Notes: generated by a model from the sequence alone, not told the origin. DNA of 22,040 nucleotides from Candidatus Thorarchaeota archaeon (GCA_003345555.1 PRDJ01000040.1:1-22040); one strand, 5' to 3'. Counted from the first letter of the stretch, positions 3,305 to 21,859 are shown. Numbers and translations: made by a program.

Positions 3305-3312
3305 GTGAGAAG

Positions 3313-6117: not shown

Positions 6118-6180
6118 AGCATGGAGCATTAGAACCGCCGGCCTGATATACGTCTCAAACTATTCCTGCAAGGCAGTGGT

Positions 6181-6498
6181 GTGATGGCCGCAAAATTCCA
6201 GACGGTGGTTCAGTGCAAGGCGTCCGCGAAGGAGGTCTACGATTTCTTGGCGACAGGCGCGCGTATGAGCATGAAAGTGAAATCGATGGATCCGACTACG
6301 ATGTCGGTCTCCCTCAAGAGCAAGGTCGGGTTTTTCAGCTATGGCGAAATAGTGGACTGCAGGGTGACCCCGACAGAACTGGGTTGCCGAGTGGATCTCG
6401 AAGGCAGGCCGGTGCTGGCCACTAACGTCACCGCCGATGTCCGGGGTACGGTAGAGAAGGTACAAAGCGCATTGATCAGCACCTTCGGGAACCGTTGA
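6181..6498 (+). CDS. Hypothetical protein, ~105 aa
   Basis: Clean ORF with alternating beta-strand-like pattern (GFFSYGEIVDCRV); start GTG 6181 or ATG 6184, with GGTG just upstream. Confidence 0.7.
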   Translation: MMAAKFQTVVQCKASAKEVYDFLATGARMSMKVKSMDPTTMSVSLKSKVGFFSYGEIVDCRVTPTELGCRVDLEGRPVLATNVTADVRGTVEKVQSALISTFGNR

Positions 6499-6506
6499 GG
6501 GGCGCA

Positions 6507-6535
6507 GCACCCTCTATGGTCCTTTCCAAGGGCGC
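6507..6535 (-). repeat. Intergenic hairpin repeat, copy I
   Basis: Minus strand GCGCCCT-TGG-AAAGGA-CCA-TAG-AGGGTGC: 7-bp + 3-bp stem with one G-T pair and loop AAAGGA. Shares AAAGGACCA(TA)GAGGGT with the copy at 19946-19978. Confidence 0.55.
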
Positions 6536-6582
6536 CGACTTGTCCAGAAGAGAATCCATCCAACTCCGATGATGCTGCCACT

Positions 6583-6732
6583 TCATCTACTGTGCCGCTT
6601 GGACGCTATGTCCATCATCTCCTCAAAGGGCATCTTCATTGGGGCACAGAGTCTCTTGAACTTCCTCTTGATCTTCAAGACTTTCAATCTTCTAGCTTTC
6701 ATGGGCTCGGCCTTCCTCTGTTGTGTTTCCAT
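6583..6732 (-). CDS. Putative small basic protein, 49 aa (39 aa from the second ATG at 6702)
   Basis: METQQRKAEPMKARRLKVLKIKRKFKRLCAPMKMPFEEMMDIASKRHSR; AAG/GAG-rich coding-like codons; no clear RBS; no family recognised. Confidence 0.35.
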   Translation of the reverse strand: METQQRKAEPMKARRLKVLKIKRKFKRLCAPMKMPFEEMMDIASKRHSR

Positions 6733-7107
6733 TGGGACTCGACAGACCGAGGAGAAGGTGCCGGAAGCGAGAAGGAACGGATTCAGGCCACCCGCGGAAG
6801 GGGAGAGAGTAGTCGAATACCGATTCGCTTGTGGCAACCGACCCGCCACCAAGCACCTTCCATACGTATTGCAGAGAGCAAGACACTATAAGCCAGCTGT
6901 GCAGCGGTTATCGGCAGTGATACCACTGGCTTGATTTGTACATTGAGTGTCCTTGCTGGCAAGGATTGACTCACAAGTCCATCTCTCCCTGCACGGATTG
7001 CCCTGATCCACATCAGGAATACACATGCCTGGCCCCTTTCCCGAAGAAGAGACCCCATCGATTCGAGAAGGGCAGCAAACGCTTATGGTTGTCTCCTCAG
7101 ATACCGG

Positions 7108-7129
7108 TCAGAGAAACCTTGGGGGAGGA
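7108..7129 (+). repeat. Inverted (plus-strand) partial copy F of the hairpin repeat, containing the clostripain RBS
   Basis: ACCTTGGGGGAGGA (7116-7129) is the exact reverse complement of 12068-12081 in copy E; its GGAGG lies 5 nt upstream of GTG 7134. Confidence 0.45.
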
Positions 7130-7133
7130 TGAA

Positions 7134-8375
7134 GTGAGGATTGGCAAAGCTGGCCTGGCATTGTGTCTCTTCGTAGCCGCCCTCATGGCGCTCCCGGTGA
7201 GCGTCGTGGGCGGACAGAACAACCATGGGGATGTCCAAAAGGACTGGACGCTGCTGATGTATTGGGATACGGACAACAGCCTTGAGATTTGCACGGAGTT
7301 CGCTTTGAGCACCTGGGAGGAATCGCTTCCAAGCAACGCTGATGTGAACATCGTCGCGCTCGTGGACCTGCTATCTGCGGATGGCACATGGATTTGGGAA
7401 ATTGTTGACGGCCAGAGGCACCTGGTCGATACGTGGGACGAACTGAACACATCGGATCCGGCAGTCCTTGAGATGTTCGTGGAGTATGGCATGACCGAGT
7501 TCCCGGCGGAGAAGACCCTGCTCGTGCTTCAGGATCACGGGTACAGCTGGAGAGGCATCTGTCAGGATGAGACCAATGGCGATCTGCTCATGCCAATAGA
7601 TGGTGTTCGCTCTGCACTGGAGTCTGCCAAGGCTGATATGGGCAACGGTGTTGATGTGCTCGCGTTCGACGCGTGCAACATGATGCTCCTTGAGGTCGTT
7701 TATGAGCTCAGTGACGTGGTGCCATACATCGTCGGCTCGCAGACGACGGTTTCGTACGACGGGCTCCCGTATGAGCTGTTCATCCCGGATCTCGTCGCGA
7801 ACCCAGACATGTCCCCGGCGGAACTCGCTGTTGACATCGTATACGACTATGCCGAATACTACAGCTCGAAGTGGGACTACTCGCACATGTTCAGGTATAA
7901 CCAGGACTTCGCGCCGGCATGCGCAGTGGACACCTCGAGGTTGGATGCCTTGGGAGACGCCTTCGGGCGGCTCTGCACAGTGCTCCAGCCGATAATCCAG
8001 GATCACATGAAGACAATCGAGGACGCGAGGGGATACTCGCTCATTGGCCAGTGGGCAAACATGGCAGGCTGGGAGTGGACCCCCGATATTGGCACATTCG
8101 TGAAGGGCCTGAGAGAGATTTCTGGGCACCCGGAGCTAGCCGCAGCTATTGACGAGTTCGAGATTGCGTACGACGTTGCGGTAATTGCCGAGGACCACAG
8201 CAAGAGGTATCATGACACTGTGACCGGTCTAAGCTTCTGGTTCCCGCCGTCTTTGGCGCAGTACAACTCGATGGGCTACTACTATTGCCAGCAGTTCGTG
8301 TACCATGACATAGGGCTGGACCTCGTCGCTGAGACCTCGTGGGTCGACTGTCTGATGACATACTACGGTTCGTAG
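7134..8375 (+). CDS. Clostripain-family cysteine peptidase (C11), secreted, 413 aa
   Basis: WTLLMYWDTDNSLE, catalytic His in LVLQDHG, catalytic Cys in LAFDACNM, and an N-terminal signal peptide (RIGKAGLALCLFVAALMALPVSVVG). Start placed at GTG 7134 behind GGGGGAGG. Confidence 0.92.
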   Translation: MRIGKAGLALCLFVAALMALPVSVVGGQNNHGDVQKDWTLLMYWDTDNSLEICTEFALSTWEESLPSNADVNIVALVDLLSADGTWIWEIVDGQRHLVDTWDELNTSDPAVLEMFVEYGMTEFPAEKTLLVLQDHGYSWRGICQDETNGDLLMPIDGVRSALESAKADMGNGVDVLAFDACNMMLLEVVYELSDVVPYIVGSQTTVSYDGLPYELFIPDLVANPDMSPAELAVDIVYDYAEYYSSKWDYSHMFRYNQDFAPACAVDTSRLDALGDAFGRLCTVLQPIIQDHMKTIEDARGYSLIGQWANMAGWEWTPDIGTFVKGLREISGHPELAAAIDEFEIAYDVAVIAEDHSKRYHDTVTGLSFWFPPSLAQYNSMGYYYCQQFVYHDIGLDLVAETSWVDCLMTYYGS

Positions 8376-8516
8376 ATGCGGATTCCAAACCTCTTCTTCG
8401 TCTCTCCTTCGTTTCTTGTGAATTGGGAGGATGCGTCAGGACTCCTTTCTGTCCACATTGTTCACCCTAGCGGATCAAGAGAGTTCTACCACACCCACCT
8501 CTTCTAGAGTCCGCAT

Positions 8517-8551
8517 CGCCTTTCCCCCGCAGGTGCCTTTCTTCAGGAAAG
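8517..8551 (-). repeat. Intergenic hairpin repeat, copy H
   Basis: Minus strand CTTTCCTGAAGAAAGGCACCTGCGGGGGAAAGGCG; 7-bp stem CTTTCCT/GGGAAAG; GGAAAGGCGA is identical to copy D. Confidence 0.6.
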
Positions 8552-8556
8552 AGTTT

Positions 8557-8595
8557 GGATATTAATTCACATTCAAGATTAAAATGTGCGAGGGC
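8557..8595 (-). repeat. att-like copy of the tRNA-Leu 3' end and trailer (copy A core)
   Basis: ATTAAAATGTGCGAGGGC (8578-8595) is identical to 21312-21329 and 17699-17716. GGATATTAAT (8557-8566) is identical to 17677-17686. Confidence 0.85.
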
Positions 8596-8613
8596 AGCTC
8601 GCTCGTGTCGTCA

Positions 8614-8648
8614 GCTTTCCTCCCCTGGGTCTTTTCCGAGGGAGGGAA
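8614..8648 (-). repeat. Intergenic hairpin repeat, copy A
   Basis: Minus strand TTCCCTCCCTCGGAAAAGACCCAGGGGAGGAAAGC; stem TTCC-(C)-TCCC...GGGA-GGAA, inner GG/CC, loop AAAAGA. Confidence 0.75.
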
Positions 8649-8668
8649 CACTCGTCTCCAACCCTGCC

Positions 8669-9409
8669 TTAGATCTGCTCTCTCGGTATGCAGCTCGGCT
8701 CGTGTGACACTCCATACTCGATGCCGAGCCTCTTCAGTCTCTCCTCGACTGCTGGATATAGTACCAGCTCCTCGATCTCGAAATCCTCGAACCCTATTCC
8801 TCTGAGCCTCTGCCTCAGCTTGCCGATGGCCTCATCAGAGCTGAAGCTCACCATGCATGCCGGATGTGCCCTGACGCCGTGATTCACAAGGTTCTCCAGT
8901 GCCCGTAGCTGCAGCCCGAAACCCTCAGACCTCGCCCCCGTGAGCTTCGAGAACTCCTCCTCGCAGGCTCCCTTCAAGCTCACTCTCACTCGCAAGTTTG
9001 GGAACTTCGACAAGTCCCCTGCATATGTCTCGTCGCAGCCTATGAGTATACCGTTGGTTTCCAGGATGAATACGTACTCTCTTGGGATGAGCTCCAGTAC
9101 TCTCAACAGATGATCCTTGGCAATAGTGGGTTCGTTCCCGCTTATCCTGATTTGGCGGAAGCCTTTACGCCTCGCCATAGCAACAAGATTTGAGGCTACT
9201 TCGTCGGGAGAGCACATCCTGCCGTATCTCTCGGGGTTGGCGACCTCCTTCCAGGACCAGCAGAAGACGCACTGAAGACAGCAGCCAACGCAGTCTGCCG
9301 TCGCGATGCCTCCGTAGAACCTGGCTGGCCTGAACCGATAGTAAGAGCGCATGTCGCCCCTGCACACGACTCTTGCTGTGGATTTGGCCAATTCGACTGG
9401 ATCGAACAT
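8669..9409 (-). CDS. Radical SAM protein (COG5014-like predicted Fe-S oxidoreductase), 246 aa
   Basis: RFYGGIATADCVGCCLQCVFCW contains CxxxCxxC; also RISGNEPT, LETNG and VRVSLKG. Confidence 0.92.
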   Translation of the reverse strand: MFDPVELAKSTARVVCRGDMRSYYRFRPARFYGGIATADCVGCCLQCVFCWSWKEVANPERYGRMCSPDEVASNLVAMARRKGFRQIRISGNEPTIAKDHLLRVLELIPREYVFILETNGILIGCDETYAGDLSKFPNLRVRVSLKGACEEEFSKLTGARSEGFGLQLRALENLVNHGVRAHPACMVSFSSDEAIGKLRQRLRGIGFEDFEIEELVLYPAVEERLKRLGIEYGVSHEPSCIPREQI

Positions 9410-9539
9410 TGAACGTTCTCAAATCGACATTCTGGATAGAAGAATCCTTCGAGCTGACGCTCGCTGACACTCCACACAAGAGAGAACCGAGCGAAGGGGA
9501 AACCAAAAGTCCAGCACTCGTACACGGTTGCCGTTCTAT

Positions 9540-9583
9540 CGCTTTCCTCCGAGGATGTGTGCCATGTCCTGTTCTGGAGACAT
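9540..9583 (-). repeat. Degenerate hairpin repeat, copy J (expanded spacer)
   Basis: Minus strand ATGTCTCC-AGAACAGGAC-N16-GAGGAAAGCG versus copy E ATGTCTCC-GAGAAGAC-N7-GAGGAAGGGCG. Confidence 0.4.
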
Positions 9584-9797
9584 GTCCCTCAGCGTCCAGT
9601 GTGTCGCCACGGAGCACTGTCGATAACTGGCTCGTTGGTTTCCGAGAAGGACATGAAGAGACGCCTTGAGCAATAGACCCCGCTCTCTGAAGGAACCCGA
9701 ATCCCGGACTGCTGCATGTTGTTTGGACATCGTCCATTGAATGGAATTGAGGTTCTCGACACTCCCATAACGAGTGGAATTGCCATTGCTAGATGAC

Positions 9798-9830
9798 AAA
9801 GAGAAAAAGAAAAAGGGTTGTGAAAAGGAT
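9798..9830 (-). terminator. Oligo-T terminator-like tract after the M28 peptidase gene
   Basis: Minus strand immediately after the stop reads ...ATCCTTTTCACAACCCTTTTTCTTTTTCTCTTT, typical of archaeal U-rich terminators. Confidence 0.55.
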
Positions 9831-9833
9831 TTC

Positions 9834-11897
9834 CTAGGTCGTCGCGAGCTGAATCAGCTGTGCTAGCACGGAATTGACTTGCATGATCTGCAGCGTCTCG
9901 ACGTCGATCCGATCCTGCAACACAGTCTTCTCAGACGCGAGTACAGTCTCCAGCGCCGCCTTCTCCCAGGAGATATCGGGCGACTGCACTTCCTCCTTCT
10001 GCCTGAGAGACACGTAGGCGTCGTAGATGTCAACGTACGGAGCGAGATGGCCCTGAGCGCCCCAGTTCAGATGCGGAGCATCTGGAGCATGCCTGTCGTT
10101 CTCCCACTCGAAGACTTCCTTGTCAAAGAAGGCATTCCACGTTAGCCCCACATTCCAGAGCTCGTCACAAGCATCATGCAGATTGCCGTCCTTCAGATAT
10201 CCGAGTGCGTTCGTCAACCATATCGCATCCCACTCGACCTGCTGAGTCGGATATATGACGCTGTCCCAACAGCTCAGGGCAGTCCACTCCCTGTTGATCA
10301 GCTGACTGGCCTCGGTCAGCAAGGCGTTTGCAGCATCTGCATCCCCCGCAGTCAACTTTGACGCTGCCGCATCATACTTCCGTGCGAGCGACTTGAACTC
10401 GGATATCGCTGGACCCAGCCCGCTTGCATCTACGCCAACGTAGGCGAAGTCATTTGCGTTGTAGCTCTTGGTGAGATCGACGGCGCGCTCCATGAACATG
10501 AACGGAAGTATCTTCGCGCTGTCAATTGCCTCCAAGAACTTGTGCATGACCTTCACCTGCATGGCCATGTCATCGTAGTGTATCAGGCCAAGGTTGTCCA
10601 TGTTGGTGTGGTAGATGGCGTCATATCCTGGAATCGTGTCCGAGAATGTTATCCCGGGGATGCCAGCGGCTGTCAGGGGCCATCCGTCCTGCCATGAGCT
10701 GAGCTCGGTAGTCACTTCCCATCCGTTCGGAAGCAGTGCTGGGTTCGCGCCAAAGACCGCCCTTGCCAGAGGTGCCAGCTGATAGTTCGCCCTGGCTGTG
10801 AACGGACCGGTCGAGCCGTCGAACCAACGACCTCCGATGCCTTCGATGTTCAGGAAGGCTACAGCCTCCATCGCCCAGTCGGGATGCGCCTGCGTAATCA
10901 TGTACCATGATCCGACCAGCCATTCATAGTAGGCATCGGTGTTGCCGTATTCCTCGCCCGTCGTCGCTATGAAGTAGAGGTCGTGCTCAGGCACGAAGCC
11001 CATCTTCTTCAAGGCCTTGGCCCAGGCCAGCAAGCCAGGTATTGCAGAAGTGTCGTCTGAGGCCCCGAAGAACCACGCATCATGGTGTCCCAGGATCAGG
11101 ATAGGATTCTGATGATTCCTTCCCGGATATACGCCCACGACGTTGTACCCAGAGCCTCCGTCCTCCGCAAGGGTCAACTTGACATTCGAAACCATCGTGC
11201 CGATGACGGGGCCATTAGCCATCATGCCCATGAGGCTGAAGCCGTCATTCCTCGATATGACGATCAAAGGAACTAGAGAGTCATCATAAGTAGCATCGAA
11301 ACTCCCGAGAGAGCTCGGCCACTCGTAATACACCGGATAGTTCATCGTGCTGATGATGACGCCTTTGGCACCATCAATGGTAGCCTGTTTCCCAATCAGG
11401 TTGACCCAGAAGTTGTCGGCATTCCAGTCACACAGCAAGAGCTTCCCCTGCACGCCGGTTGCAGGGTATTCCCCAGGCGTTCCCTGGCCCACATACACGA
11501 TCTCCCCGGTCAGGCCTGCCGGAGGAGTCCCTGGTACGCCACCCATCGAGGATGCCAAGAACTTGTAGGTGCCACTTGCACCGCTGACAGTCAAGCTCGC
11601 GCCCTTGAACTCCCAGGCATCAACAGGCACCCTTTCCATCCGGACATTCGATAGCCCGATCTTGACCATCTCCTGCTTGATGAAGGCCGCGCCCGCGTTT
11701 TCTGAGGAGCTTCCAGCCGCGCGGAATCCGTAGCCCGGCCATGTTCCTAGACCTACCAGCTTCTCTTCAACATACTTCTCATAGTTCTGGTCGATGTTGA
11801 GTTGTGGAGCAGGCTTCGCAACCACGAAGGACCCGCTAAAAGCCACGACTACAAAGACGAAGACTATGAGTGCTGCCAAGATTCTTCTACCAATCAT
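9834..11897 (-). CDS. Secreted M28-family zinc peptidase with PA domain, 687 aa
   Basis: Signal peptide (MIGRRILAALIVFVFVVVAFSGSFVVA); metal ligands GHHDAW, GASDD, TGEEYG, LNIEG and YHT; PA insert (GEIVYVG..G...GKLLL...A...GAKGVI). Start placed at ATG 11897. Confidence 0.92.
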   Translation of the reverse strand: MIGRRILAALIVFVFVVVAFSGSFVVAKPAPQLNIDQNYEKYVEEKLVGLGTWPGYGFRAAGSSSENAGAAFIKQEMVKIGLSNVRMERVPVDAWEFKGASLTVSGASGTYKFLASSMGGVPGTPPAGLTGEIVYVGQGTPGEYPATGVQGKLLLCDWNADNFWVNLIGKQATIDGAKGVIISTMNYPVYYEWPSSLGSFDATYDDSLVPLIVISRNDGFSLMGMMANGPVIGTMVSNVKLTLAEDGGSGYNVVGVYPGRNHQNPILILGHHDAWFFGASDDTSAIPGLLAWAKALKKMGFVPEHDLYFIATTGEEYGNTDAYYEWLVGSWYMITQAHPDWAMEAVAFLNIEGIGGRWFDGSTGPFTARANYQLAPLARAVFGANPALLPNGWEVTTELSSWQDGWPLTAAGIPGITFSDTIPGYDAIYHTNMDNLGLIHYDDMAMQVKVMHKFLEAIDSAKILPFMFMERAVDLTKSYNANDFAYVGVDASGLGPAISEFKSLARKYDAAASKLTAGDADAANALLTEASQLINREWTALSCWDSVIYPTQQVEWDAIWLTNALGYLKDGNLHDACDELWNVGLTWNAFFDKEVFEWENDRHAPDAPHLNWGAQGHLAPYVDIYDAYVSLRQKEEVQSPDISWEKAALETVLASEKTVLQDRIDVETLQIMQVNSVLAQLIQLATT

Positions 11898-12061
11898 GAG
11901 TCTTCCCCCCTTCGCGTCCTGCGAATTGCAGGACGAAGGCAAATCGAATTACGAATACAATAACCCTGTTGTTTACCATCGAGGGTCAATTCAGGAACTG
12001 TTCACGAGCGCCTGTAGGCAATTCTCTTGTTGCGATCCGAAAAATAGACCATGATTCTAGA

Positions 12062-12095
12062 CGCCCTTCCTCCCCCAAGGTCTTCTCGGAGACAT
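12062..12095 (-). repeat. Intergenic hairpin repeat, copy E
   Basis: Minus strand ATGTCTCCGAGAAGACCTTGGGGGAGGAAGGGCG; 8-bp stem TCTCCGAG/CTTGGGGG with three G-T pairs. Confidence 0.65.
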
Positions 12096-12142
12096 AGTGG
12101 GACCTACGAAGGACCGAAAGGGGTTCGAAAACGACCTCCACT

Positions 12143-15100
12143 TCACGGGTTGTAGGTCAGCACTCCGCTCGCGCTGCAATAGATCCAGTATCCCTGTCCC
12201 GGAACCAGCAAGAAATTGTTCATCGTCGGAATTGTGCTGATCCAGCTTCTGTAGGCCTTTGTTGCTGAATCCCAGGATACCACCATCTTGACGCCCCCTG
12301 CGACACTATACATCGCGGGGATGTCGCTCGCGTGCTTGGCCGTGTCGAGCGAGTTAAAGCCTATTAGCGCCCAACCCCCGCCGGCTGGGACGGCTACGGT
12401 CCTAGTCTGCGGAGTGCTCGGCAGGACTCCTTCGAGCGTGAGTGTTTCTGTCCCGCTTTGCACATAGATCCAATACCCCGTGCTGGGGACAATCGAGAAG
12501 TCCATCACCGACGGTGAGATTCCGACTATGTACATTCTGTAGGCTCCCGTAGCTGAGTTCCAACCACACACCACGTCGCCAGTATCAAGGCCGAGCGTGC
12601 TCGCTCTATGCCCTGACGCAACCACAGGTACGGCCACCAAGTTCCAGCCTTCGGATAGATTGAGGTAGAATGTGGCCGAGGCGGTGTCAAGCAGGATCGT
12701 GTCCGTGACAATCACTGAGTTGCCAGCTCTGTCCACGACCTGATAATAGACTGTCTTCATCCCATTCCCTGACAACAGGATCCAGGGCTTCGAGCTCACG
12801 GCGGGCTCCCATGAGGACCAGGACACGCCGTCGTTGCTATACCGCACCTTGTCCACATCGGATGTCGCATCGCTAGCGGTGAGCGAGAGCGCAACCGAAG
12901 TCGTGTTCGTATAGGCCGCCCCCGAGTTGATCACAATCGACGCTGTGGGCGCGACCCGGTCGAGCATTATGGAATCAGAATAGATGGCTGTATTGCCCGC
13001 GACGTCGCTGAACTGAACCTGAACCACCTTCAGGCCGCCGCCCGTGAGCGTCCACGCCTTTGTTGCCGAGAAGTTCTCCCACGTGCTCCAGCCCGAGGAA
13101 CCGTCGTTGAGCCGCATCTGCCCCATACCCGAGACCGCGTCGCTGGCCTTCAGGTCCAGCGTGACAGACGAGGAGTTGGTGTACTCCGCCCCGCTGTTGA
13201 CGACGATTGAGCCGGTCGGGGGCGTTCTGTCGAGCTTGATGCCTGTGAGGAGGCTGTGATCCTCGACGATGCCGTCGATGTCTTCGCTCCAGAATTCCAG
13301 CGTGTTGTTCGAGCCCTCGGTCGTGATCACCGGCAGGCCGTCGAGCTTCACCGTCTTCATCGGCCCGCCGTTGATGATGTAGTACGTGTCCAGAACCTGG
13401 CTTTCCGGAGCTGCTGCCGTCAGGATGATCGTAAAGTTCGAGGTGTGCCAGTAGTCGGTGTAGTCGTGGGTCGTCACGGGCCCGGTCGCCACTGGCCATG
13501 GGGCCATAAGCGGATATCTGTCGACGCTGTCGGAGTCGATCACCATAGTCGTGTCGCCTATGCCATCGCTCCCGGAGATGTCCTGGCCGGGGCCGCTGAA
13601 CGCATCCGAGCCAGAGTAGTTGCTCCAGTAGTTCCCGCCATTGGGGTAGTCATCATCCCACTGGTTCTGCGAGCCTGAATCGTCGTAGCCCCGAAGAACG
13701 TTGCCCAGGAGATTGTTGTGGAAGACCCTGATCGACGTCGAGCTCGCGATGTATATGGCGCATGTGTTGTTCCACAGATCGTTCGCCTTGATGGCGCCGT
13801 TCACCGAGCTCGTGACATATATCCCCCTGTAGCAGCATGATGAGACGTTATTCCTGACGATGTTGAATCCGTTGCACGAGCTAGCGAATATGCCGTTTCC
13901 GTTAGGGGCGGTGACGATGTTCGCCCTCACGTTGAACCCCGTGCACGAGATGACCTGAATAGCATCGCCTTTGCTCGAGACCACGTTGTTGGTGATGTTC
14001 GAGATCGTGATTCCGCTGAACACGACGCCCGTTATCTGAAGGTCCATGGCCACATTCTTCGTGACCTTCACGTCGAAGCCGGTCCAATCGACGACTATCC
14101 CGTAGTTGCTGATGGATGTGCCGGAGGCGTTGTTCCCGGAAACCACCGCGTGCTGGCAATTTGACACATGGATGTTCGCGGCCCTGTTCCGGACCGCGAT
14201 GTTGCCCGATATGAGGACATTCGTGCAGCCATTAGTGCAGATCCCGTCGCCGTTGGAGCTTCCAGACGCATTGTTCATGGAGACTGTTACGTTGGCACAG
14301 GAGACCGCTTCAATAAGGATGTTGGAGCAGTCGGAAATCGTGTTGCCAATGATGTTTGTCCATCCAGCAACCGTGGAGATCTGGACTGCTGAGCGGGACG
14401 AGCCGCCGTTGTTCGTGATGGTGTTTCGCGAAATCGTTAGATTCGAGCCTCCGGAAACGATTATGTTGTAGTTCGAGCCATGCGCCAGGCTACTGTTGTC
14501 GAGGGTGAAGTTCTCGCAGTAATTGGCTAGGACGCCATACATGTCCGTCCAGGAAACATTGGCCCCACGGATTGCGACATCCGCACAGTCATAGAACATC
14601 ATTCCCTGGCGCACGCGCGTCCCGGTTACATTCTCAATGCTCACGTCGCTCGCATACGCCATCTCGACAGCGACATCTGTATCACCGACTGACAGGTCCG
14701 CAGCAAGAACATGTGTGCAGTTCGCGACTATGAGCTGCCCAACAGGAATTCCCGTGACATCGACATGGCTCTCGTTCCTGAAGTAGTAGACCGGCTTTCC
14801 GTTGACCAGGTTGCTGGTAGCGATCGTGTGCGTATTGAATTCTTCCACGGATCCGTAGCCCATGTATGCCAATCCTGAGATCGAGATGCCATCCGACTCG
14901 AAGGTGTTGTTGACAATCGTCATCCCCACGGTGCCCTCGAGCGTGAGACCATGTTGGTCGTTCAAGAGGACGTTGTTCGCGATTGTGCAGCTGGAGGCCC
15001 AATAGAAGTTGATGCCCGTCGGTTCATCGGAGGCATTATTGCCTACGACGTTCACCTTTGAACAGAAATAGGCTACTGAGATTCCCACTTGCCAAGCTGA

Positions 15101-17023
15101 GGACACACTATTCTGCAGGATGTCTACCACCGAGCAGCCATAGATGCTGATTGAAATCGACATCTGGGCGAGATCATTGCGTGCGATGGTGGCGTTCGTG
15201 CACCAGGAGAGACTGAAGCTCCCTGCATTCCTGGCGGTGTTGTCCGCGATGAGTATGTTCGCGCTGTTTGCCAGGGCGATGCCACCGCCTCCATTGTTGA
15301 TGTGGTTGCCCACTATAGTGATGTTAGTGGCAGAGTCCATCGAGATTGCCCCGTTTGTATTGTCGGAGAAGTTGCTGCTCAGGACCCTGACGTTCGCGGA
15401 ATGGGCGGACACCAGAGTGTTTCCAACGTTTCCTCTGGCTGAACACTCAGTGACATCGATTCGTGAGCAGTGGTCGAGAAATATCGGGTTGTCGTAGTAG
15501 TTCGTGTTGTATGAGATGTCGCTGTCAGTGATATTCACGTCCTCGCAGTAGCAGAGGAGCAGAGCGTGATTATGCTCATGTGCAATCGTGACATTCTTCA
15601 TGATACAGTCGCTGACGAAGGCCATTTCGATGCCGATCTGCGTGCCGTCAATTGCCAGGTTCGCGACCTGCACATTCGTGTAGTTCGCTACGATCAGTTC
15701 ACCGACGACATCTTGATGGAAAGCCAGGTCTGTCCCGTCCTTGTAGTAATAGATTGGCTTTCCGCCAATCAGGTTGTCCGTCGTTATAGTGTGAGTGGCA
15801 TAGTAGTCGACCGAGTCTCCTTCCAGGTAGATACCACCAGAGGTGAAGACATTCCTGTTCACTTTGACGTCCTTGGAGTAGGACAGGCCAACACCAGCCG
15901 CATCCTCCCTCATGTCATTGTCGACGACAAGCGCACCGTCTGAATAGCTGAGGTAGATGCCGCTGCCCGAACTTGAGACATCGTTGGAGGCAACAATGAG
16001 GTCGCTCGAGTACGAACAGCTAATGCCGCCCGCACAATTCGAGGCATTGTTTCCGGTGATGTTGAATCCACCACAAGATGAGAGAGAGATTGCAGAACCC
16101 CAGCACCAAGAAAAGTTGTTGTCCAGAACAGTGGCGTTCCTGCAGCTCCCGCAAGATGCGCCAATGTAGGCATGCGATAGATCGTTCCCCGCGACCGTTG
16201 TATTCGCCGAGGAATACAGCCAGATGCCGCCATACACGCCCCCGAGATCATTCCCGATGATTGTGGAATTCACACAATTCTCGATGCTCATCCCGTTGGA
16301 GTATCCGAAGGGCGAGACACGATTGTTCGTCAGGGACGTGTTCCCGCAGAAGCTTGTACGGATTCCGGCGTCACCGCTCGAGGACACGTTGCATCCATTA
16401 ACGACGCTGTTCTCACTGTGCTCTATGAGGACGCTCTGGCGATTACCTGCAAACCTTGCCTGCTCAATCCGGCCGTTTGCCACACAGTCGAAGTGGATGC
16501 CCGAATAGCCGGCGGTCGTTGAGTTGATGTTCACGTCGCGTATGACGAAATAGGCGTCCGTGTTCCGGACGTCTATTCCTATCCCAAGAGAGGAATCGAT
16601 GTCCAACCCTTCGATTATGTAAGGGTCTGTGGCAGTCCCGCTTCCCGATACAACTCCGTTGGAGCTCGTGAAGTTGCTGTTCCCATCTATGAGGATGTTG
16701 GCGTGTGGCGTGCCGGATGTCCTTACTTTCATGGGCTCGTTGGGCGCGCGCTGGACGACAAACACACCCAGGGCGGAGATGATCATGACGACGGCCAACA
16801 CGACGGCAACGTGCTTTTGAGCGGGGGATCCGGAACGTCGTGACCCTGATCTGCGGATCCTGATGGAATTCTCGAGTCTATCAACGCCTGCAGAATTCGA
16901 TGCAGCGAGCGAGCGATCAGCGTTTGGCTCCTCAGCTGCCTCCTCCAGTCTTCCTTGCACTGCAAATCCCCCCAAATTCCGAATAGCGCCCGCGGAATCA
17001 CAACTGCGGTTGCCGTTTTGCAA
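12143..17023 (-). CDS. Large cell-surface protein: parallel beta-helix (NosD/CASH) repeats, Ig-like DxTPP domains and a duplicated GWxL...GYWI C-terminal domain, 1626 aa
   Basis: One hydrophobic segment (~aa 73-91); HANILIDGN...GSGT..DPYIIEG start of the beta-helix; many N-x-I-x-x-N repeats; GGNYWSNY.G.D..SG..QD..G.DGIGDT...DRYPL motif; two DR(T/V)AP/PP-x-SIV(V/I)NSGA.YTN repeats. Start codon uncertain. Confidence 0.9.
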   Translation of the reverse strand: MQNGNRSCDSAGAIRNLGGFAVQGRLEEAAEEPNADRSLAASNSAGVDRLENSIRIRRSGSRRSGSPAQKHVAVVLAVVMIISALGVFVVQRAPNEPMKVRTSGTPHANILIDGNSNFTSSNGVVSGSGTATDPYIIEGLDIDSSLGIGIDVRNTDAYFVIRDVNINSTTAGYSGIHFDCVANGRIEQARFAGNRQSVLIEHSENSVVNGCNVSSSGDAGIRTSFCGNTSLTNNRVSPFGYSNGMSIENCVNSTIIGNDLGGVYGGIWLYSSANTTVAGNDLSHAYIGASCGSCRNATVLDNNFSWCWGSAISLSSCGGFNITGNNASNCAGGISCSYSSDLIVASNDVSSSGSGIYLSYSDGALVVDNDMREDAAGVGLSYSKDVKVNRNVFTSGGIYLEGDSVDYYATHTITTDNLIGGKPIYYYKDGTDLAFHQDVVGELIVANYTNVQVANLAIDGTQIGIEMAFVSDCIMKNVTIAHEHNHALLLCYCEDVNITDSDISYNTNYYDNPIFLDHCSRIDVTECSARGNVGNTLVSAHSANVRVLSSNFSDNTNGAISMDSATNITIVGNHINNGGGGIALANSANILIADNTARNAGSFSLSWCTNATIARNDLAQMSISISIYGCSVVDILQNSVSSAWQVGISVAYFCSKVNVVGNNASDEPTGINFYWASSCTIANNVLLNDQHGLTLEGTVGMTIVNNTFESDGISISGLAYMGYGSVEEFNTHTIATSNLVNGKPVYYFRNESHVDVTGIPVGQLIVANCTHVLAADLSVGDTDVAVEMAYASDVSIENVTGTRVRQGMMFYDCADVAIRGANVSWTDMYGVLANYCENFTLDNSSLAHGSNYNIIVSGGSNLTISRNTITNNGGSSRSAVQISTVAGWTNIIGNTISDCSNILIEAVSCANVTVSMNNASGSSNGDGICTNGCTNVLISGNIAVRNRAANIHVSNCQHAVVSGNNASGTSISNYGIVVDWTGFDVKVTKNVAMDLQITGVVFSGITISNITNNVVSSKGDAIQVISCTGFNVRANIVTAPNGNGIFASSCNGFNIVRNNVSSCCYRGIYVTSSVNGAIKANDLWNNTCAIYIASSTSIRVFHNNLLGNVLRGYDDSGSQNQWDDDYPNGGNYWSNYSGSDAFSGPGQDISGSDGIGDTTMVIDSDSVDRYPLMAPWPVATGPVTTHDYTDYWHTSNFTIILTAAAPESQVLDTYYIINGGPMKTVKLDGLPVITTEGSNNTLEFWSEDIDGIVEDHSLLTGIKLDRTPPTGSIVVNSGAEYTNSSSVTLDLKASDAVSGMGQMRLNDGSSGWSTWENFSATKAWTLTGGGLKVVQVQFSDVAGNTAIYSDSIMLDRVAPTASIVINSGAAYTNTTSVALSLTASDATSDVDKVRYSNDGVSWSSWEPAVSSKPWILLSGNGMKTVYYQVVDRAGNSVIVTDTILLDTASATFYLNLSEGWNLVAVPVVASGHRASTLGLDTGDVVCGWNSATGAYRMYIVGISPSVMDFSIVPSTGYWIYVQSGTETLTLEGVLPSTPQTRTVAVPAGGGWALIGFNSLDTAKHASDIPAMYSVAGGVKMVVSWDSATKAYRSWISTIPTMNNFLLVPGQGYWIYCSASGVLTYNP

Positions 17024-17053
17024 TCGCTATGAATGGGTTAAGAATCTTTCGGT

Positions 17054-17089
17054 GCATTTCCGCCCTTGTGGTCTTTTCTTGAGCTGGAA
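17054..17089 (-). repeat. Intergenic hairpin repeat, copy K
   Basis: Minus strand TTCCAGCTCAAGAAAAGACCACAAGGGCGGAAATGC; stem TTCC-(A)-GCTC...GGGC-GGAA; GAAAAGACC is identical to copies A and D. Confidence 0.7.
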
Positions 17090-17195
17090 TTCCCACATTG
17101 TCGGAGCTGAAGGCTTATCACAAGGAATAGCCATCGATTCTATCACAACAAAGAAGTGGATAACGCAAAGAGGACAGTAGGAGGAGAAAGCGGCG

Positions 17196-17669
17196 ATGAG
17201 ATCGCTCTTGATTGTTGCTTCGTATCATCACGGAAACACCGAGAAGATTGCGAGCGTGTTTGCCCGGGTCCTTGAGGCGCAGACAAGGACGCCCAACCAG
17301 ATACATCCTGAAGAGCTTCAAGAGTATGATCTCATCGGCTTTGGCTCAGGCATCTACGATGCAAAGCACCATACTGATATTCTCGACCTTGCCGATAGAC
17401 TACCGCAAGTCACCAACAAGCTGGCATTCATTTTCTCAACTAGTAGTCACATAGGTGATGACCAAGTCGCCAAAGACCACTCCACACTCAGGGAGAAGCT
17501 GAAGTCGAAAGGTTACGTGATCGTTGACGAATTCAGCTGCAAGGGTTTCAATACGAATAGTTTCCTTGGGCATTTTGGGGGCATGAACAAGGGCAGGCCG
17601 AATGCGGATGACCTCATGCATGCGGAAGCGTTTGCCACGAACCTGAAGCAGACCACGCATGCCACATAG
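17196..17669 (+). CDS. Flavodoxin-family protein, 157 aa
   Basis: FMN phosphate loop SYHHGNTEKIA, DLIGFGSGIY, AFIFST and GRPN..DL..A..FA; RBS GGAGGAG upstream. Confidence 0.92.
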   Translation: MRSLLIVASYHHGNTEKIASVFARVLEAQTRTPNQIHPEELQEYDLIGFGSGIYDAKHHTDILDLADRLPQVTNKLAFIFSTSSHIGDDQVAKDHSTLREKLKSKGYVIVDEFSCKGFNTNSFLGHFGGMNKGRPNADDLMHAEAFATNLKQTTHAT

Positions 17670-17676
17670 CCAACCC

Positions 17677-17722
17677 GGATATTAATCTGAATTCTTAGAT
17701 TAAAATGTGCGAGGGCCCGGAT
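17677..17722 (-). repeat. att-like copy of the tRNA-Leu 3' end and trailer (copy B core)
   Basis: ATTAAAATGTGCGAGGGCCCGGAT (17699-17722) is identical over 24 bp to 21312-21335; adjacent palindrome ATATTAATCTG-AATTCT-TAGATTAAAAT at 17679-17706. Confidence 0.9.
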
Positions 17723-17773
17723 ATTTGCCCGGAATTTGCCGGCATTTAAACCCTCCACCTATAGAATTCATAA

Positions 17774-17782
17774 GTGCGAGGG
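17774..17782 (-). repeat. Short remnant of the tRNA-Leu 3' end
   Basis: GTGCGAGGG matches 21320-21328. It is short, and is supported only by lying within 60 bp of copy B and 80 bp of copy D. Confidence 0.4.
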
Positions 17783-17853
17783 AGAAATCGACGATCGATT
17801 ATTGACATCGAATCTACTGGCAATTAAAGGTCCCAGCAATAACTGCCGGCATG

Positions 17854-17909
17854 AAATGTGCGAAGTATTCCGCTCGTACCGTCGCCTTTCCTCCCGGTCT
17901 TTTCTGAGG
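17854..17909 (-). repeat. Hairpin repeat copy D plus degenerate att core; homologous to 8582-8641
   Basis: Minus strand CCTCAGAAAAGACC---GGGAGGAAAGGCGACGGTACGAGCGGAATACTTCGCACATTT aligns with copy A at about 46 of 60 columns (hand alignment). Confidence 0.8.
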
Positions 17910-17921
17910 CTCAGGATTAGG

Positions 17922-19775
17922 TCATGTCATGTTCTTCTTGAGGAAGCCGACAATACTCTTGATTTGACGAGCATTCTCTCTCCAATCGCATCTGGAGGAG
18001 ATGTGCCCTGCCTTGTCCTCAAGGATGAACTCGTGAGGGTGATTCATATCTTCCAGTTTCTTGACGAACCTCAGTACAGGCTGTATTGGACATCTTGCAT
18101 CTGTCTTTCCACCCTTGATTAAGACCGGAGCCGTGATCTTCGATATGTGAGTAATCGGGGACCTGCTTCGAAGCAACTCTCTTTTCTTGGAGACCGACCC
18201 TCCAAACTGCTCTTCGATAAACGACTTGAATGTGGCATCTGCCAATTCGTTCATCTCCAACCAGTCCGTTATTGGAACACCTGCGACGCCAGCGGCAAAG
18301 ACTTTCGGCTTCGTCGTCAGAGCCATCAGGGTCATGTATCCGCCGTAGGAGAAGCCGCCAATCGCTATCTTCGTAGCTTGAATGTCTTTCTGTCTGCGAA
18401 GCCATTCGGCGGCATACACTTCATCCTCCAGGTCACCTCCACCAAGGTCTCCAACATTCAGCCTCCTGAACTCGGCTCCGTAGCCGGTCGAGCCTCTGAC
18501 ATTCGGGGCGATGACTGCGAACCCGCTCAACGAAAAAGCGTGCAAGGAATCCGCAGATATCCAATCATCAAAAACCTGCCAGTTCGGACCCCCGTGCACC
18601 CAGACTATTGCGGGACTCGGCCCTGCCTTTGACGCCGAAGGCACGTACCATGCGTGAATATCGCGTCCATCAAAGGATTTGTACCAAACGGACCTTGGAG
18701 TGGCTAGCTTGGTCAGGTCGATACCATACTTCTGCGAGGTCAAAGCTACTGCAGACTTTGCGCCACTTCTTAGCCAATAGATTGCCGGTGGGGAAGTCAG
18801 CGACGAGTGGAGCGCGGCTACTGATCCGTCTGAAGTCACCTTCATGCATGTGATTGTGCCCTCGGGAAACGGGAGATTCTTGCCCTTCTTCTGGGTCAGT
18901 CTATGCTCACGGACGACGCTGCGGCTGTGCTTGCTGACGATGTAGAACACTCTATCCGCTTTAGGTCCCCACACCGGCCATCCAAGAACCTCTTCACCAA
19001 CCTCCAAATCCAAGAACTGCCGTGACTGGCTCCGAAGATCCTGGATGACAACCTGGCGTACTCCCTTTGCATCGCTCTCAAAGGCGAGCCTCTTGTCGTC
19101 AGGGGAGAAGGACGGAAAGTTGTCTCTAGAGTCTTTCTTTACACTGTAGGTGGTCATATCCGATGGATTGCCCCTCCTGAAGACCATGATCTCTTCACTC
19201 TTGGGACTGGCCGTCGCATCGCACGCAATGTATTTGCCGTCATGAGAATAGGTCACAGTTCCGATCGGAGGCGTCGCCTCCTTCAGCATGAAACACTCGC
19301 CGGTTGCCGTGTCGATAGTCTCCAGACCGCAGGATTCCTTCTTGGTGATCGCACGAGTGACTTCCTTTGCGTTCGGACTCCAATCGAAGAGCCCCCACAT
19401 CCTGTATGGGGTCTTGGTGATCCTCCTTGGCCTTCCACCCTCTGTTGGCAGCAGATACATGTCAAATGTCTCGTTTCCATCACGGTCTTTAGGGAAGACG
19501 AACTCGCGTCCGTTCGGAGAGAAAAGTCCGAGATCTACGGGATCTTCGCCTTTGGTCAGTTGAACTGGCTTCGAGCAAGGCTTCGTATGCTGGCAATAGA
19601 TTTCGAGATTCCCCGTCCGGTTCGAGGAATAGAGCAAGGTCTTCCCATCTCGAGTAACGTCGAAGACCTCGTAGAACGGAGATATCACTGGAATCTTGAG
19701 CACGTCCAGGTACGACGGCAGAATGTTGACCACCCGCTTGGGCCAATTCCATTCCATCTCCTTAGGTCTTTCCAT
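17922..19775 (-). CDS. S9-family peptidase (acylaminoacyl-peptidase/dipeptidyl peptidase-like) with beta-propeller, 617 aa
   Basis: VHGGP, NVRGSTGYG, nucleophile GFSYGG, Asp in D-ARC, His in AGH; N-terminal WD40/TolB-like FSPDxK repeats; no signal peptide seen. Confidence 0.95.
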   Translation of the reverse strand: MERPKEMEWNWPKRVVNILPSYLDVLKIPVISPFYEVFDVTRDGKTLLYSSNRTGNLEIYCQHTKPCSKPVQLTKGEDPVDLGLFSPNGREFVFPKDRDGNETFDMYLLPTEGGRPRRITKTPYRMWGLFDWSPNAKEVTRAITKKESCGLETIDTATGECFMLKEATPPIGTVTYSHDGKYIACDATASPKSEEIMVFRRGNPSDMTTYSVKKDSRDNFPSFSPDDKRLAFESDAKGVRQVVIQDLRSQSRQFLDLEVGEEVLGWPVWGPKADRVFYIVSKHSRSVVREHRLTQKKGKNLPFPEGTITCMKVTSDGSVAALHSSLTSPPAIYWLRSGAKSAVALTSQKYGIDLTKLATPRSVWYKSFDGRDIHAWYVPSASKAGPSPAIVWVHGGPNWQVFDDWISADSLHAFSLSGFAVIAPNVRGSTGYGAEFRRLNVGDLGGGDLEDEVYAAEWLRRQKDIQATKIAIGGFSYGGYMTLMALTTKPKVFAAGVAGVPITDWLEMNELADATFKSFIEEQFGGSVSKKRELLRSRSPITHISKITAPVLIKGGKTDARCPIQPVLRFVKKLEDMNHPHEFILEDKAGHISSRCDWRENARQIKSIVGFLKKNMT

Positions 19776-19945
19776 CAGTTTCTCGAAGATTCACGAAGTC
19801 AGGAGATTATCCCTGCGATTGATGGTTAAGGACAGTTCGTGTCTTGTTTTGGACATCACAGGGCAAATCCAAAGAGAAGGCGGTAAGAGTGTGAGTCTGC
19901 TCGGAGAGCTGGATCATTCTTTGCTGGCAAGAATCCCGTTTCTTC

Positions 19946-19978
19946 CGCCTTTCTTACCCTCTGGTCCTTTGCAGGATA
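19946..19978 (-). repeat. Intergenic hairpin repeat, copy G
   Basis: Minus strand TATCCTGCAAAGGACCAGAGGGTAAGAAAGGCG; stem TATCCT/AGGGTA; ends in GAAAGGCG like copies D and H. Confidence 0.55.
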
Positions 19979-20089
19979 GCCTGATGATTGCAGAGAATTC
20001 GCAACTCTAGTGACCCCGTCCTTGGAACGACGCAATGAATATCTGAGGATAGGTGATTGATCCTCAAGGAGCCTGGGAGTTGAAACAGA

Positions 20090-21232
20090 ATGAAGGGCAG
20101 ACGCATAGCGACCTGTTGGGCAATGCTAGCAATCGCCGTTCTGGGAATGACCGCTATTTCTGGTACGAGCTCTGCTCATCTGCCTATGTACTCTCCGGGC
20201 GGATCCACGATGAGCACTGCTCTGAAGATTCCAGATGCAAACACATCGTATGGCATAACCGCGGAGTTTCCATCTTCCACCAATCGAATCCAGTTCTACG
20301 CATTCTCAGTGTACGCGGGGCAAGACCTTTCCTTCGAACTGGACGTCCCAGCGACATCAAGCCTTCAGGATTTCGCGCCAGTGATCCTCCTCATTGGCCC
20401 GGGCCTCCATTCTCCCGACAGCAATACATCAAGAATAATCGATGAATTCAGCATCACACTATCATCTGGAGACGGGGCGACTATCTATCTCTACAATGGC
20501 ACTGAGAACGTCAGAGTGTTCGAACCTTTCACCCAGACAAACCTGTGGGTTCGCCAGAGCGGGGAGGTTACACTCCCCTCTACGGGGATCTACTACCTTG
20601 CTGTTGCTGTTCCTCAGGGGTGGCCGCACGATGCCACCTCGGGATTCGGCAAGTACATTCTGGCTCCAGGCACAGTAGAGAGGTTCACTCTGCTTGACTA
20701 TATGTCTATTCCAATAGACTGGGTGAAGTGGCACGCATTCTGGGGACAATCCGTTCTGTTGCTTATGGTTCCCACCTTCTTGGTCGTCGTCATTGGAGTC
20801 ACGGGAACTTGGTACTATCTCAAGAATCGCCGACCAGAGATGCTCGAGTCCAAGCCGAGCGTCACCAGAACCGGGTTCTATCTCGGAGCAGTTGGCGCGA
20901 TGTTGATGGTGGGCAGCACCGTCAACCAAATGGCGCTGCTCTTCTACTACACCAGGTTCTCGCTGGAGACGGCAGACTACATAGAGCTTATGCTACAAGT
21001 CATTGGACTCGTCCTCGGCATCCTTGCATTTCGTATGGTCTTCGGCTTGATGCAACCGAGATCCACTGCAAGGAAGGTTCTCAGCATCGCTCTTCTAGTT
21101 TTGATCGGGTTCGCTGCACTGATGGTCGGAGCTGGTTGGCTCGTCGGTCCAGTATTGTTTGCTTGTGCGGGCTTGACCGAGCTCTTGTCGGCAAATAGAA
21201 CTGAGCGAAGAACCGATGCGTTGGAACGCTGA
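20090..21232 (+). CDS. Hypothetical membrane protein (signal peptide, extracellular beta-rich domain, ~5 C-terminal TM helices), 380 aa
   Basis: Hydrophobic N-terminus ending in SSA-H; soluble region with FEPFTQT and G.YYLAV; several hydrophobic C-terminal segments. Confidence 0.85.
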   Translation: MKGRRIATCWAMLAIAVLGMTAISGTSSAHLPMYSPGGSTMSTALKIPDANTSYGITAEFPSSTNRIQFYAFSVYAGQDLSFELDVPATSSLQDFAPVILLIGPGLHSPDSNTSRIIDEFSITLSSGDGATIYLYNGTENVRVFEPFTQTNLWVRQSGEVTLPSTGIYYLAVAVPQGWPHDATSGFGKYILAPGTVERFTLLDYMSIPIDWVKWHAFWGQSVLLLMVPTFLVVVIGVTGTWYYLKNRRPEMLESKPSVTRTGFYLGAVGAMLMVGSTVNQMALLFYYTRFSLETADYIELMLQVIGLVLGILAFRMVFGLMQPRSTARKVLSIALLVLIGFAALMVGAGWLVGPVLFACAGLTELLSANRTERRTDALER

Positions 21233-21293
21233 ACATCATGCAAGAGTGTCCCATCTATTCTCAACTATGATCCTTTTCCCAAGAAGCTTGCGC

Positions 21294-21335
21294 ATTAATC
21301 CAAATCTATGAATTAAAATGTGCGAGGGCCCGGAT
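21294..21335 (-). repeat. Chromosomal att-like core (copy C): tRNA-Leu 3' end plus trailer and ATTAAT arm
   Basis: ATTAAT-N12-ATTAAAATGTGCGAGGGCCCGGAT; source of the copies at 17699 and 8578. Confidence 0.85.
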
Positions 21336-21405
21336 TTGAACCGGGGGACTCCTGCGAGAACAGATCTTGAGTCTGTCGCCTTTGACCGAGCTTGGCTACC
21401 CTCGC
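21321..21405 (-). tRNA. tRNA-Leu (anticodon CAA), 85 nt, CCA not encoded
   Basis: GCGAGGG/CCCTCGC acceptor stem plus discriminator A; D-arm GCC..GGC; anticodon arm ACAGA-CTCAAGA-TCTGT; variable arm CTC-GCAG-GAG; T-arm CCCGG-TTCAAAT-CCGGG; T4 tract directly downstream. Confidence 0.98.
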
Positions 21406-21484: not shown

Positions 21485-21673
21485 TTAACATTTGAAAACA
21501 ATCTCCACGCGAAACGTACCCCGGCCAAGGAATTGCCTTCCAGGCCATGAGAACCGTCGCCTGGCAGGAACGTTGTTTGATGGGTGAAACCGAAAGGCAT
21601 TAATGTTATGGATGCATAATGTTTCACCCGGTAGAACGTGCGCGCGTTCTACCTCTCCAACATGGAGAGGCAT
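21485..21673 (-). CDS. Putative small hypothetical protein, 62 aa
   Basis: MPLHVGEVERAHVLPGETLCIHNINAFRFHPSNNVPARRRFSWPGRQFLGRGTFRVEIVFKC, preceded by RBS-like GAGGTG 8 nt before the ATG; co-oriented between map and the tRNA. No family recognised. Confidence 0.3.
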   Translation of the reverse strand: MPLHVGEVERAHVLPGETLCIHNINAFRFHPSNNVPARRRFSWPGRQFLGRGTFRVEIVFKC

Positions 21674-21859
21674 TACCAACACACCTCGCCATTTCCTCCA
21701 GAATTTCGAACCACCCACAACTTTTTCACAAAAGAGGTGTTCGTCGTGCCTCTCCACTCAGCTTTTTTCTGATCGGTTCGATGCTACGGCGATTGACGAG
21801 TCTACGAAGATCCATCTACGCCTGACCTGTAGTGCATCCCCCGCCACAGACCAGAACTC

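Follow-up and report, generated by a model that had tools for sequence, protein, structure and literature searches.

A gene array behind tRNA-Leu(CAA)

The DNA studied here, hereafter the window, is the entire contig C40 (PRDJ01000040.1; 22,040 nucleotides, nt) of a metagenome-assembled genome (MAG; GCA_003345555.1) that has a size of 2.28 Mb in 82 contigs, is about 93% complete and is labelled Candidatus Thorarchaeota archaeon. Between 6.5 and 21.3 kb of the window, seven to eight gene cassettes are arrayed behind a tRNA-Leu(CAA) gene and are separated by a short repeat. The repeats of the window represent degenerate versions of a strand-oriented, 32-nt element, CCTCGGAAAAGMCCATAGGGGAGGAAAGGCGA, which is conserved in sequence and not in structure. 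In a sediment Thermoplasmatota lineage, this element delimits cassettes, most of them with a single gene, that are docked behind tRNA-Leu(CAA). A preliminary description of the window, made from its sequence alone, had interpreted the repeats as hairpins delimiting such cassettes, and the names that it gave to the copies (letters, 'half' and the coordinates 9540 and 6709) are retained here.

Read in the sense of the tRNA, the array begins with the tRNA gene, its trailer and the copy 'half', followed by the gene of a 380-amino-acid (aa) protein with copy G, and by an S9 peptidase gene with copy D and a tRNA-end module (units 1–3). Then come a flavodoxin-like gene with copy K, a NosD-like gene with copy E and an M28 peptidase gene with the remnant at 9540 (units 4–6). 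The last units comprise a radical SAM gene with copy A, a copy of the tRNA end with its trailer and copy H, and then a C11 peptidase gene and a 121-aa open reading frame (ORF) with copy I, beyond which the core genes lie (units 7–8). The coordinates of all features are given in Table 1.

The element in related metagenomic loci

By scanning metagenome contigs with the 18-mer GCCCTCGCACATTTTAAT from the tRNA-Leu 3′ end, 120 stretches were obtained; the L numbers below denote related loci. The first 80 stretches were analysed in more detail, with motif copies counted at E ≤ 0.01, while the other 40 (L147–L186) were held out for motif count and orientation only. The consensus was derived from 88 distinct copies, with an A/C polymorphism at motif position 12, and column conservation over 88–111 distinct copies reached 80–98% along the 32 nt, including flanks that had not been used in selecting the copies. 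About 185 copies were found across the 120 loci in total, and 176 of the 185 are co-oriented with the tRNA sense (114/120 in the first 80 loci and 62/65 in the held-out 40).

In the first 80 loci the copies are spaced at a median of 894 nt (interquartile range 558–1897), and 108 of 120 lie outside any ORF of at least 100 aa. Among 69 distinct intervals, 46 contain one such ORF, 12 contain none and seven contain two, which bears out the earlier claim that a real repeat family bounds mostly single-gene units behind tRNA-Leu. The cargo ORFs face either way (45 in the same and 40 in the opposite orientation) and are very diverse, with 434 ORFs falling into 314 clusters that include peptidases, Fic, an ABC ATPase, transporters and giant proteins, the latter being the commonest ORF cluster in the related arrays. 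Motif and trailer are about 85–100% conserved, as against 63% identity over the last 59 residues of the core M24 peptidase next to the array, and a further box, ATGTTCAAAC, frequently stands directly before or directly after the motif. The family had been put forward as undescribed. It has no match in Rfam 15, by which only tRNA was detected in the window and only tRNA, rRNA and a group I intron in four related loci, and no description of the 32-nt motif was found in the literature.

Copies of the element in the window

The seven strings quoted earlier for A, D, K, E, H, G and I are exact and lie on the minus strand. A consensus made from A and D alone retrieved, at no more than two mismatches in the 2.28-Mb genome, A, D, E, K and two other sites. 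Leave-one-out hidden Markov models (HMMs) of the window's six copies supported A and D, weakly E and no others, and were underpowered for K, H and G. An independent HMM, built solely from metagenomic motif copies and then run on the MAG, gave E as its best match in the window, together with D and A (genome-wide E values in Table 1), whereas K was marginal (E = 0.12) and I alone was not significant (E = 4.2). The same model found nothing in 1–6400, in keeping with the claim that the repeat is absent from the first 6.4 kb.

Further, each window copy was scored against the independent 32-nt consensus, with 3000 random 50-mers of the genome serving as the null (Table 1). Copy I is identical to the 5′ two-thirds of this consensus at 18 of 21 positions. 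The copy reported at 6709 obtained a score of 9 (p = 0.03) and is unsupported. The copy at 9540 resembles CCTCG fused to GAGGAAAGCGA, that is, the motif lacking about 15 nt inside, and the aligner chose another placement for it. Homology with the related loci was found for several copies: G is orthologous to a canonical copy in L112, with the shared segment beginning within the motif; K is orthologous to a canonical copy in L146; H has its 5′ flank in common with a motif copy in L086; and next to the 9540 copy, the flank 9555–9669 shows homology to sequence that flanks a canonical copy in L074 and in L099.

The reported repeats are therefore real at A, D, E, G, K, I, H and 'half' and, more weakly, at 9540, while the 6709 copy and the hairpin form had to be dropped. 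Roughly one copy is present per gene boundary and the orientation is fixed whatever the direction of the neighbouring genes, both as previously described. A chance origin of the repeats was considered as well, and was ruled out by the alignment scores for eight of the ten reported copies, with the 6709 copy still unsupported.

Distribution of the element

An uneven spread over the genome, which the preliminary description anticipated, was indeed observed: the independent HMM and a model, R1, match the MAG only in C40 (four copies) and in C51 (one copy). On C51, a relic of the system (1990–3090) lies away from tRNA-Leu and consists of a degenerate TTTAAT/tRNA-end-like module, a motif-like site (2044–2066) and one cysteine-rich ORF (2145–2930), followed by a ATGTTCAAAC box and motif (3056–3090, E = 3.5e-4). 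Dispersal in the manner of repetitive extragenic palindromic (REP) sequences is ruled out for this MAG by the confinement of the motif to C40 and the C51 relic. Neither the strict and loose motif patterns nor model R1 gave anything above control in 25–400 GTDB relatives, and the tRNA-Leu 18-mer is absent from the other 85 genomes of the family. In viral contigs there was no tRNA-end match, and the motif gave four matches at chance level, with none for the long consensus.

Absence of a conserved fold

In the preliminary description, the repeat was a conserved purine loop set in a variable stem, with a compensatory change between copies A and K and wobble pairs confined to the minus strand as the arguments for folding. 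Fold energies of the window copies were no better than those of shuffles (z from −1.2 to +1.1), and RNAalifold yielded no consensus structure from 104 copies on either strand. In a covariation check over 108 copies, the proposed pairs were paired in 69.6%, versus 69.5% in column shuffles, of which 246 out of 500 paired at least as highly as observed; the covariation score was below the shuffle mean, and the proposed pairs were absent from the top mutual-information pairs. With folding and covariation tests both null, the compensatory-change and wobble arguments fail, and the 'loop' and the 'stems' proved to be equally conserved as linear sequence. The remark that the ends of integron attC sites are lacking was correct, since RYYYAAC/GTTRRRY pairs number 2 in 6100–21320 (both strands) versus 2.06 in shuffles, and these ends are also missing from the motif consensus.

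Displaced tRNA-Leu 3′-end modules

Displaced tRNA-Leu 3′-end modules, overlooked in the preliminary description, lie within the same array. The last 18–24 nt of tRNA-Leu and about 35 nt of its trailer recur at 17681–17722 and 8576–8595, and an exact 18-nt core is found at 21312–21329, 17699–17716 and 8578–8595, so that direct repeats of the tRNA 3′ end, as are characteristic of a tRNA-targeted island, occur inside this one.

The motif belongs to a larger conserved module, which is composed of a P arm, the tRNA-end core, the trailer with its ATGTTCAAAC box and the motif itself, and the stretch 17696–17913 (including copy D) is matched at about 75–87% in more than 20 metagenomic loci. Most metagenomic tRNA ends, of full genes and fragments alike, are followed by a trailer made up of CATTTTAAT, about 12 nt and ATTAATGTTCAAAC, and the motif stands in a fuller and highly conserved form about 8 nt beyond ATTAATGTTCAAAC. 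Measured from the core, its position in the related loci is +35 to +49 nt, mostly +35 to +42. Some intervals consist of the tRNA-end module alone, in the order motif, P arm (TATAG, a TTTAAT stretch and a pseudo-T-arm), core, trailer and next motif.

The displaced modules retain a stem like that of a T arm (CCGGG...CCGG), the loops of which vary, have the TTTAAT stretch about 25–30 nt upstream and begin with a second, degenerate tRNA-end box. In the P arm of the module at 17675–17881, degenerate tRNA-end boxes were located at 17854–17863 and 17774–17782. The modules resemble the scars that ordinary integration would leave at the tRNA gene. Possibly they are remnants, in miniature and end to end, of an integrase element, and they might be transcribed.

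Homology breakpoints at the edges of the element

Content differences between populations were predicted to break at the motif, and this was found to be the case. Out of 135 internal breakpoints of homology between loci, 44 lie within 10 nt of the motif against 4.1 expected, an approximately tenfold excess, and 17 lie within 10 nt of the core. Segments shared upstream stop at motif positions 25–33, that is, at the 3′ edge, and segments shared downstream start at positions 0–6, the 5′ edge. These positions at both edges indicate that units shared between contexts have the motif as their boundary at either end.

Two cassettes of the window illustrate this pattern. The flavodoxin cassette (17054–17742) is 87% identical to L146, and the homology ends at the 3′ edge of K. 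For the S9 peptidase, a 92% orthologue (91% DNA identity) is present in L026 in a different context, and the DNA shared with the window starts at 19866, some 90 nt ahead of the ATG, and runs up to the stop codon, which precedes D by 12 nt. A Logan contig with a 92% S9 orthologue, L027, ends exactly within the site of box plus motif (compare L026:2955–2980), which fits an assembly-graph branch at the motif.

Integrases at the same tRNA gene

As had been supposed, no recombinase was found in cis: there is none in the window, and none was found elsewhere in the MAG, in which three TnpB-like genes were noted. Among the related loci, L030 and L098 carry a 324-aa tyrosine integrase (PF00589) and a helicase directly behind a full tRNA-Leu(CAA) gene. 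In L030 (4180–12427) the integrase is followed by a UvrD-like helicase, a DUF87/HerA-like ATPase and a Cas4-like nuclease, and L098 (2985–8731, flipped) has motif-bounded ORFs upstream of its tRNA-Leu. This arrangement looks like an autonomous tRNA-Leu-targeting element and suggests a source of the tRNA-end modules, and its integrase is a possible enzyme for the motif.

Cargo genes and genomic setting

Table 1. Coordinates of the features in the window. Scores refer to alignment with the independent 32-nt consensus and its null of random genomic 50-mers; HMM E values are genome-wide.
Feature	Position	Strand	Evidence or remark
tRNA-Leu(CAA), anchor of the array	21320..21405	-	ARAGORN; Rfam tRNA, 56.4 bits
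Trailer behind tRNA (CATTTTAAT ... ATTAATGCGCAAGC box)	21286..21319	-	Aligned to trailers of two displaced copies; box at 21299
Motif copy 'half'	21255..21279	-	Degenerate, in canonical post-trailer place; score 12, p 0.0017
380-aa archaeal protein, unknown family (cargo)	20090..21232	+	Archaeal hypothetical clusters in Atlas
Motif copy G	19946..19975	-	Degenerate; score 18, 0/3000 random
S9 prolyl-oligopeptidase-family peptidase (cargo)	17922..19775	-	Pfam
Motif copy D	17882..17909	-	HMM E 5.5e-4; score 22.5, 0/3000 random
Displaced tRNA-Leu 3′-end module	17675..17881	-	P arm, pseudo-T-arm and exact core, trailer
Flavodoxin-like protein (cargo)	17196..17669	+	Pfam
Motif copy K	17054..17078	-	2 mismatches to A/D consensus; score 17, 0/3000 random
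1626-aa NosD/beta-helix surface-type protein (cargo)	12143..17023	-	Pfam
Motif copy E	12062..12091	-	HMM E 1.8e-4; score 20, 0/3000 random
M28 peptidase (cargo)	9834..11942	-	Pfam
Motif remnant (9540 copy)	9536..9554	-	Score 10.5, p 0.007
Radical SAM protein (cargo)	8669..9409	-	Pfam, NCBIfam
Motif copy A	8615..8641	-	HMM E 5.7e-4; score 23, 0/3000 random
Displaced tRNA-Leu 3′ end	8553..8598	-	Exact core; trailer with box at 8553-8566
Motif copy H	8516..8541	-	Degenerate, in canonical post-trailer place; score 13, p 0.0007
121-aa ORF and C11 (clostripain-family) peptidase (cargo)	6569..8375	+	Pfam
Motif copy I	6511..6531	-	Last copy, far end of the array by the core genes; score 15, 0/3000 random

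Among the cargo, the NosD-like gene has a DNA match to a member (L081) of the giant-protein cluster. The 380-aa protein has no match in Pfam, NCBIfam or PHROGs; a search for related loci with its ORF returned distant bacterial matches only, and a contig search for records encoding it found none. The order of genes from the M28 peptidase to the core genes, spanning the four cassettes closest to the latter, is the same in the portions seen of three other assemblies, one of which has DNA that is 99.95% identical to the window and hence provides no strain variation. This shared order and the eroded motif copies suggest that the array of the window is old and fixed in the population.

The neighbours of a cargo protein in Atlas are archaeal, and the closest named homologues of the core aminotransferase (74–79% identity) belong to Thermoplasmata or Thermoplasmatota MAGs, an affinity that disagrees with the Thorarchaeota label of the contig. 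We treat the organism, judging from these affinities, as a sediment Thermoplasmatota archaeon. Upstream of the tRNA lie the Sua5 and M24 genes, and C40 terminates within the M24 peptidase gene. Between that gene and tRNA-Leu, a long hairpin of about 95 nt with 20 pairs (21654–21770, minus strand) is 94–97% identical in nine metagenomic loci, among them L086, in which the M24 C-terminus is just 63% identical; it has no Rfam match and may be an unannotated non-coding RNA. In L116 (8926–11540), an archaeal 23S rRNA gene with a group I intron is situated about 9 kb away from tRNA-Leu.

A proposed crossover site for cassette exchange and its alternatives

We lean, with moderate confidence, towards the 32-nt element being an oriented site of crossover, at which cassettes are exchanged through an enzyme that acts in trans, and towards the array in the window being an old one that is now eroding. 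We infer site-specific recombination, in which the element would function as an attachment (att)-like site where cassettes are excised, inserted and exchanged. The recombinase would be encoded elsewhere and act in trans, cassettes would pass through circular intermediates, and the first motif copy, at its fixed place about 35–42 nt behind the start of the tRNA trailer, would provide the docking site.

Several points weigh against this interpretation. Many of the loci come from related sediment metagenomes and are hence non-independent, and the link to tRNA-Leu holds by construction because the loci were picked via the tRNA-Leu 18-mer. A search for presence or absence of units between loci returned ten candidate insertions or deletions with the motif at the junction in three, which falls short of showing that units are simply gained or lost there, and no excised circle or empty site was seen among the assembled loci. 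No copy of the motif was found in 400 GTDB species genomes from the phylum, and its whole-genome distribution was therefore checked in one MAG only. As to the enzyme, searches of the MAG, which is about 93% complete, found no PF00589, PF16795, PF00239 or PF01797 protein (tyrosine, SSV-type, serine and Y1 families, respectively), no recombinase family appeared when the ten largest clusters of ORFs from the related loci were scanned, and the L030 integrase has, within the 80 loci, one close homologue (L098) and one distant homologue (L109). The motif appears to lack the dyad symmetry usual for tyrosine or serine recombinase cores, such as the two inverted binding arms around a short spacer in Xer/dif-type sites; its sole complementarity, the 4-nt CCTC/GAGG, is accounted for by column composition, dyad symmetry having been assessed no further. 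Finally, homologous recombination over a 32-nt conserved block would yield an identical breakpoint pattern.

This last point is central to an explanation that we regard as unlikely, in which the motif is some other conserved signal (an insulator, a protein-binding or an RNA-level element) and the units are shuffled by homologous recombination over its 32 nt. Breakpoints at the motif edges are also expected from homologous recombination between short conserved blocks, and the apparent lack of dyad symmetry and of a recombinase tied to the motif would be natural for a signal, as would a co-oriented ORF within 60 nt after about 40% of the copies and the GGAGG inside the motif. However, the start-codon offsets are variable and, of the neighbouring ORFs, half lie on the opposite strand, which speaks against the motif being a promoter, a Shine-Dalgarno sequence or a terminator. 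Moreover, the remainder of the genome lacks the signal, a block of 32 nt is short for homologous recombination to be efficient, and the strict 95% polarity relative to the tRNA is left unexplained. A Shine-Dalgarno or leader function of the motif was considered separately and ruled out by the same variable offsets and opposite-strand ORFs.

It is quite unlikely that the motif is a mere passenger, namely an attachment-site arm of tRNA-Leu-targeting elements that was multiplied by serial integration while the accompanying tRNA-end repeats decayed. Such an origin would explain why the motif stands +35 to +42 nt after the tRNA end in most of 24 cases, why A and D lie about 20 nt upstream of tRNA-end remnants, and why H and 'half' come right after trailers. 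It also draws support from the integrase-bearing elements at the same tRNA in L030 and L098, and from tycheposon islands, in which serial tRNA integration leaves partial tRNA repeats (10.1101/2020.12.28.424599). Yet only 24 of 172 loose motif matches occur within 90 nt downstream of a core, and L112 has nine motifs with one core. The core is exact where present, which makes its selective decay beside intact motifs unlikely, and the breakpoints peak at the motif and not at the core (44 versus 17 within 10 nt).

Very improbable, lastly, is the single-strand hairpin of the preliminary description (attC-like DNA or a structured RNA with a variable stem around the purine loop), for although window copies A, E and I are able to form stems of 5–8 bp and CCTC and GAGG flank the consensus centre, the fold energies are at shuffle level and there is no RNAalifold structure, covariation, excess of attC ends or Rfam match.

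From that description, an undescribed oriented cassette-boundary family behind tRNA-Leu with breakpoints at the motif is thus retained, while the folded site is abandoned and a likeness to attC is functional at most. Extending the crossover-site interpretation, we tentatively propose, as plausible though short of probable, that the array represents an integron-like gene-capture platform of Thermoplasmatota that shares no parts with integrons, has a non-palindromic boundary site and is docked at the 3′ end of tRNA-Leu(CAA), the trans-acting recombinase possibly being the L030/L098 integrase or possibly one of a new kind.

Significance and comparison with known systems

If the element is a recombination site, gene capture in archaeal cassette arrays would have arisen on a basis different from that of integrons, with recognition of double-strand sequence instead of a folded attC and with a tRNA gene as the platform. 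Such a system would account for the way in which these sediment archaea gather and swap accessory genes, among them those for secreted peptidases and giant surface proteins. The short, well-defined site and the candidate integrase make the proposal testable at the bench, and the motif and the tRNA-Leu 18-mer can serve to recognise a hypervariable region that did not turn up in the binned reference genomes covered by the searches.

With REP sequences, bacterial interspersed mosaic elements and miniature inverted-repeat transposable elements, the motif shares being short, conserved, intergenic and present in many copies. Unlike them it is not dispersed in the 2.28-Mb MAG, has strict polarity and forms no palindrome; terminal inverted repeats were not noticed at the motif, no search having been aimed at them.

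A closer resemblance is found to tycheposon-type islands. In Prochlorococcus, remodelling of tRNA-anchored islands by tycheposons leaves partial tRNA repeats (10.1101/2020.12.28.424599), and the arrays described here likewise have one tRNA gene as anchor, partial tRNA 3′-end repeats inside and mixed cargo, with autonomous elements encoding an integrase, helicase and ATPase at the same tRNA in L030 and L098. They differ in having a second and commoner repeat, not derived from the tRNA, that bounds units of about one gene, and in that neither an integrase nor a replication module is present in the window or was found in most of the related loci.

For Archaea, integrons have been reported, mostly as clusters of attC sites lacking integron-integrases (CALINs), that depend on folded attC sites of the canonical type (PMC9668308). 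Like sedentary chromosomal integrons and CALINs, the arrays consist of mostly single-gene units with one co-oriented boundary site each and diverse cargo, their unit content varies between related populations at these sites, and many of them are without a nearby integrase. In contrast to integrons, no IntI was found here (the L030 and L098 integrases being unexamined for the IntI domain), and recombination is proposed from sequence. The site is a linear conserved stretch of 32 nt and not an imperfect palindrome with RYYYAAC/GTTRRRY ends, the cargo ORFs face both ways (45 to 40), and the place that attI takes next to intI is occupied by the 3′ end of tRNA-Leu and its trailer.

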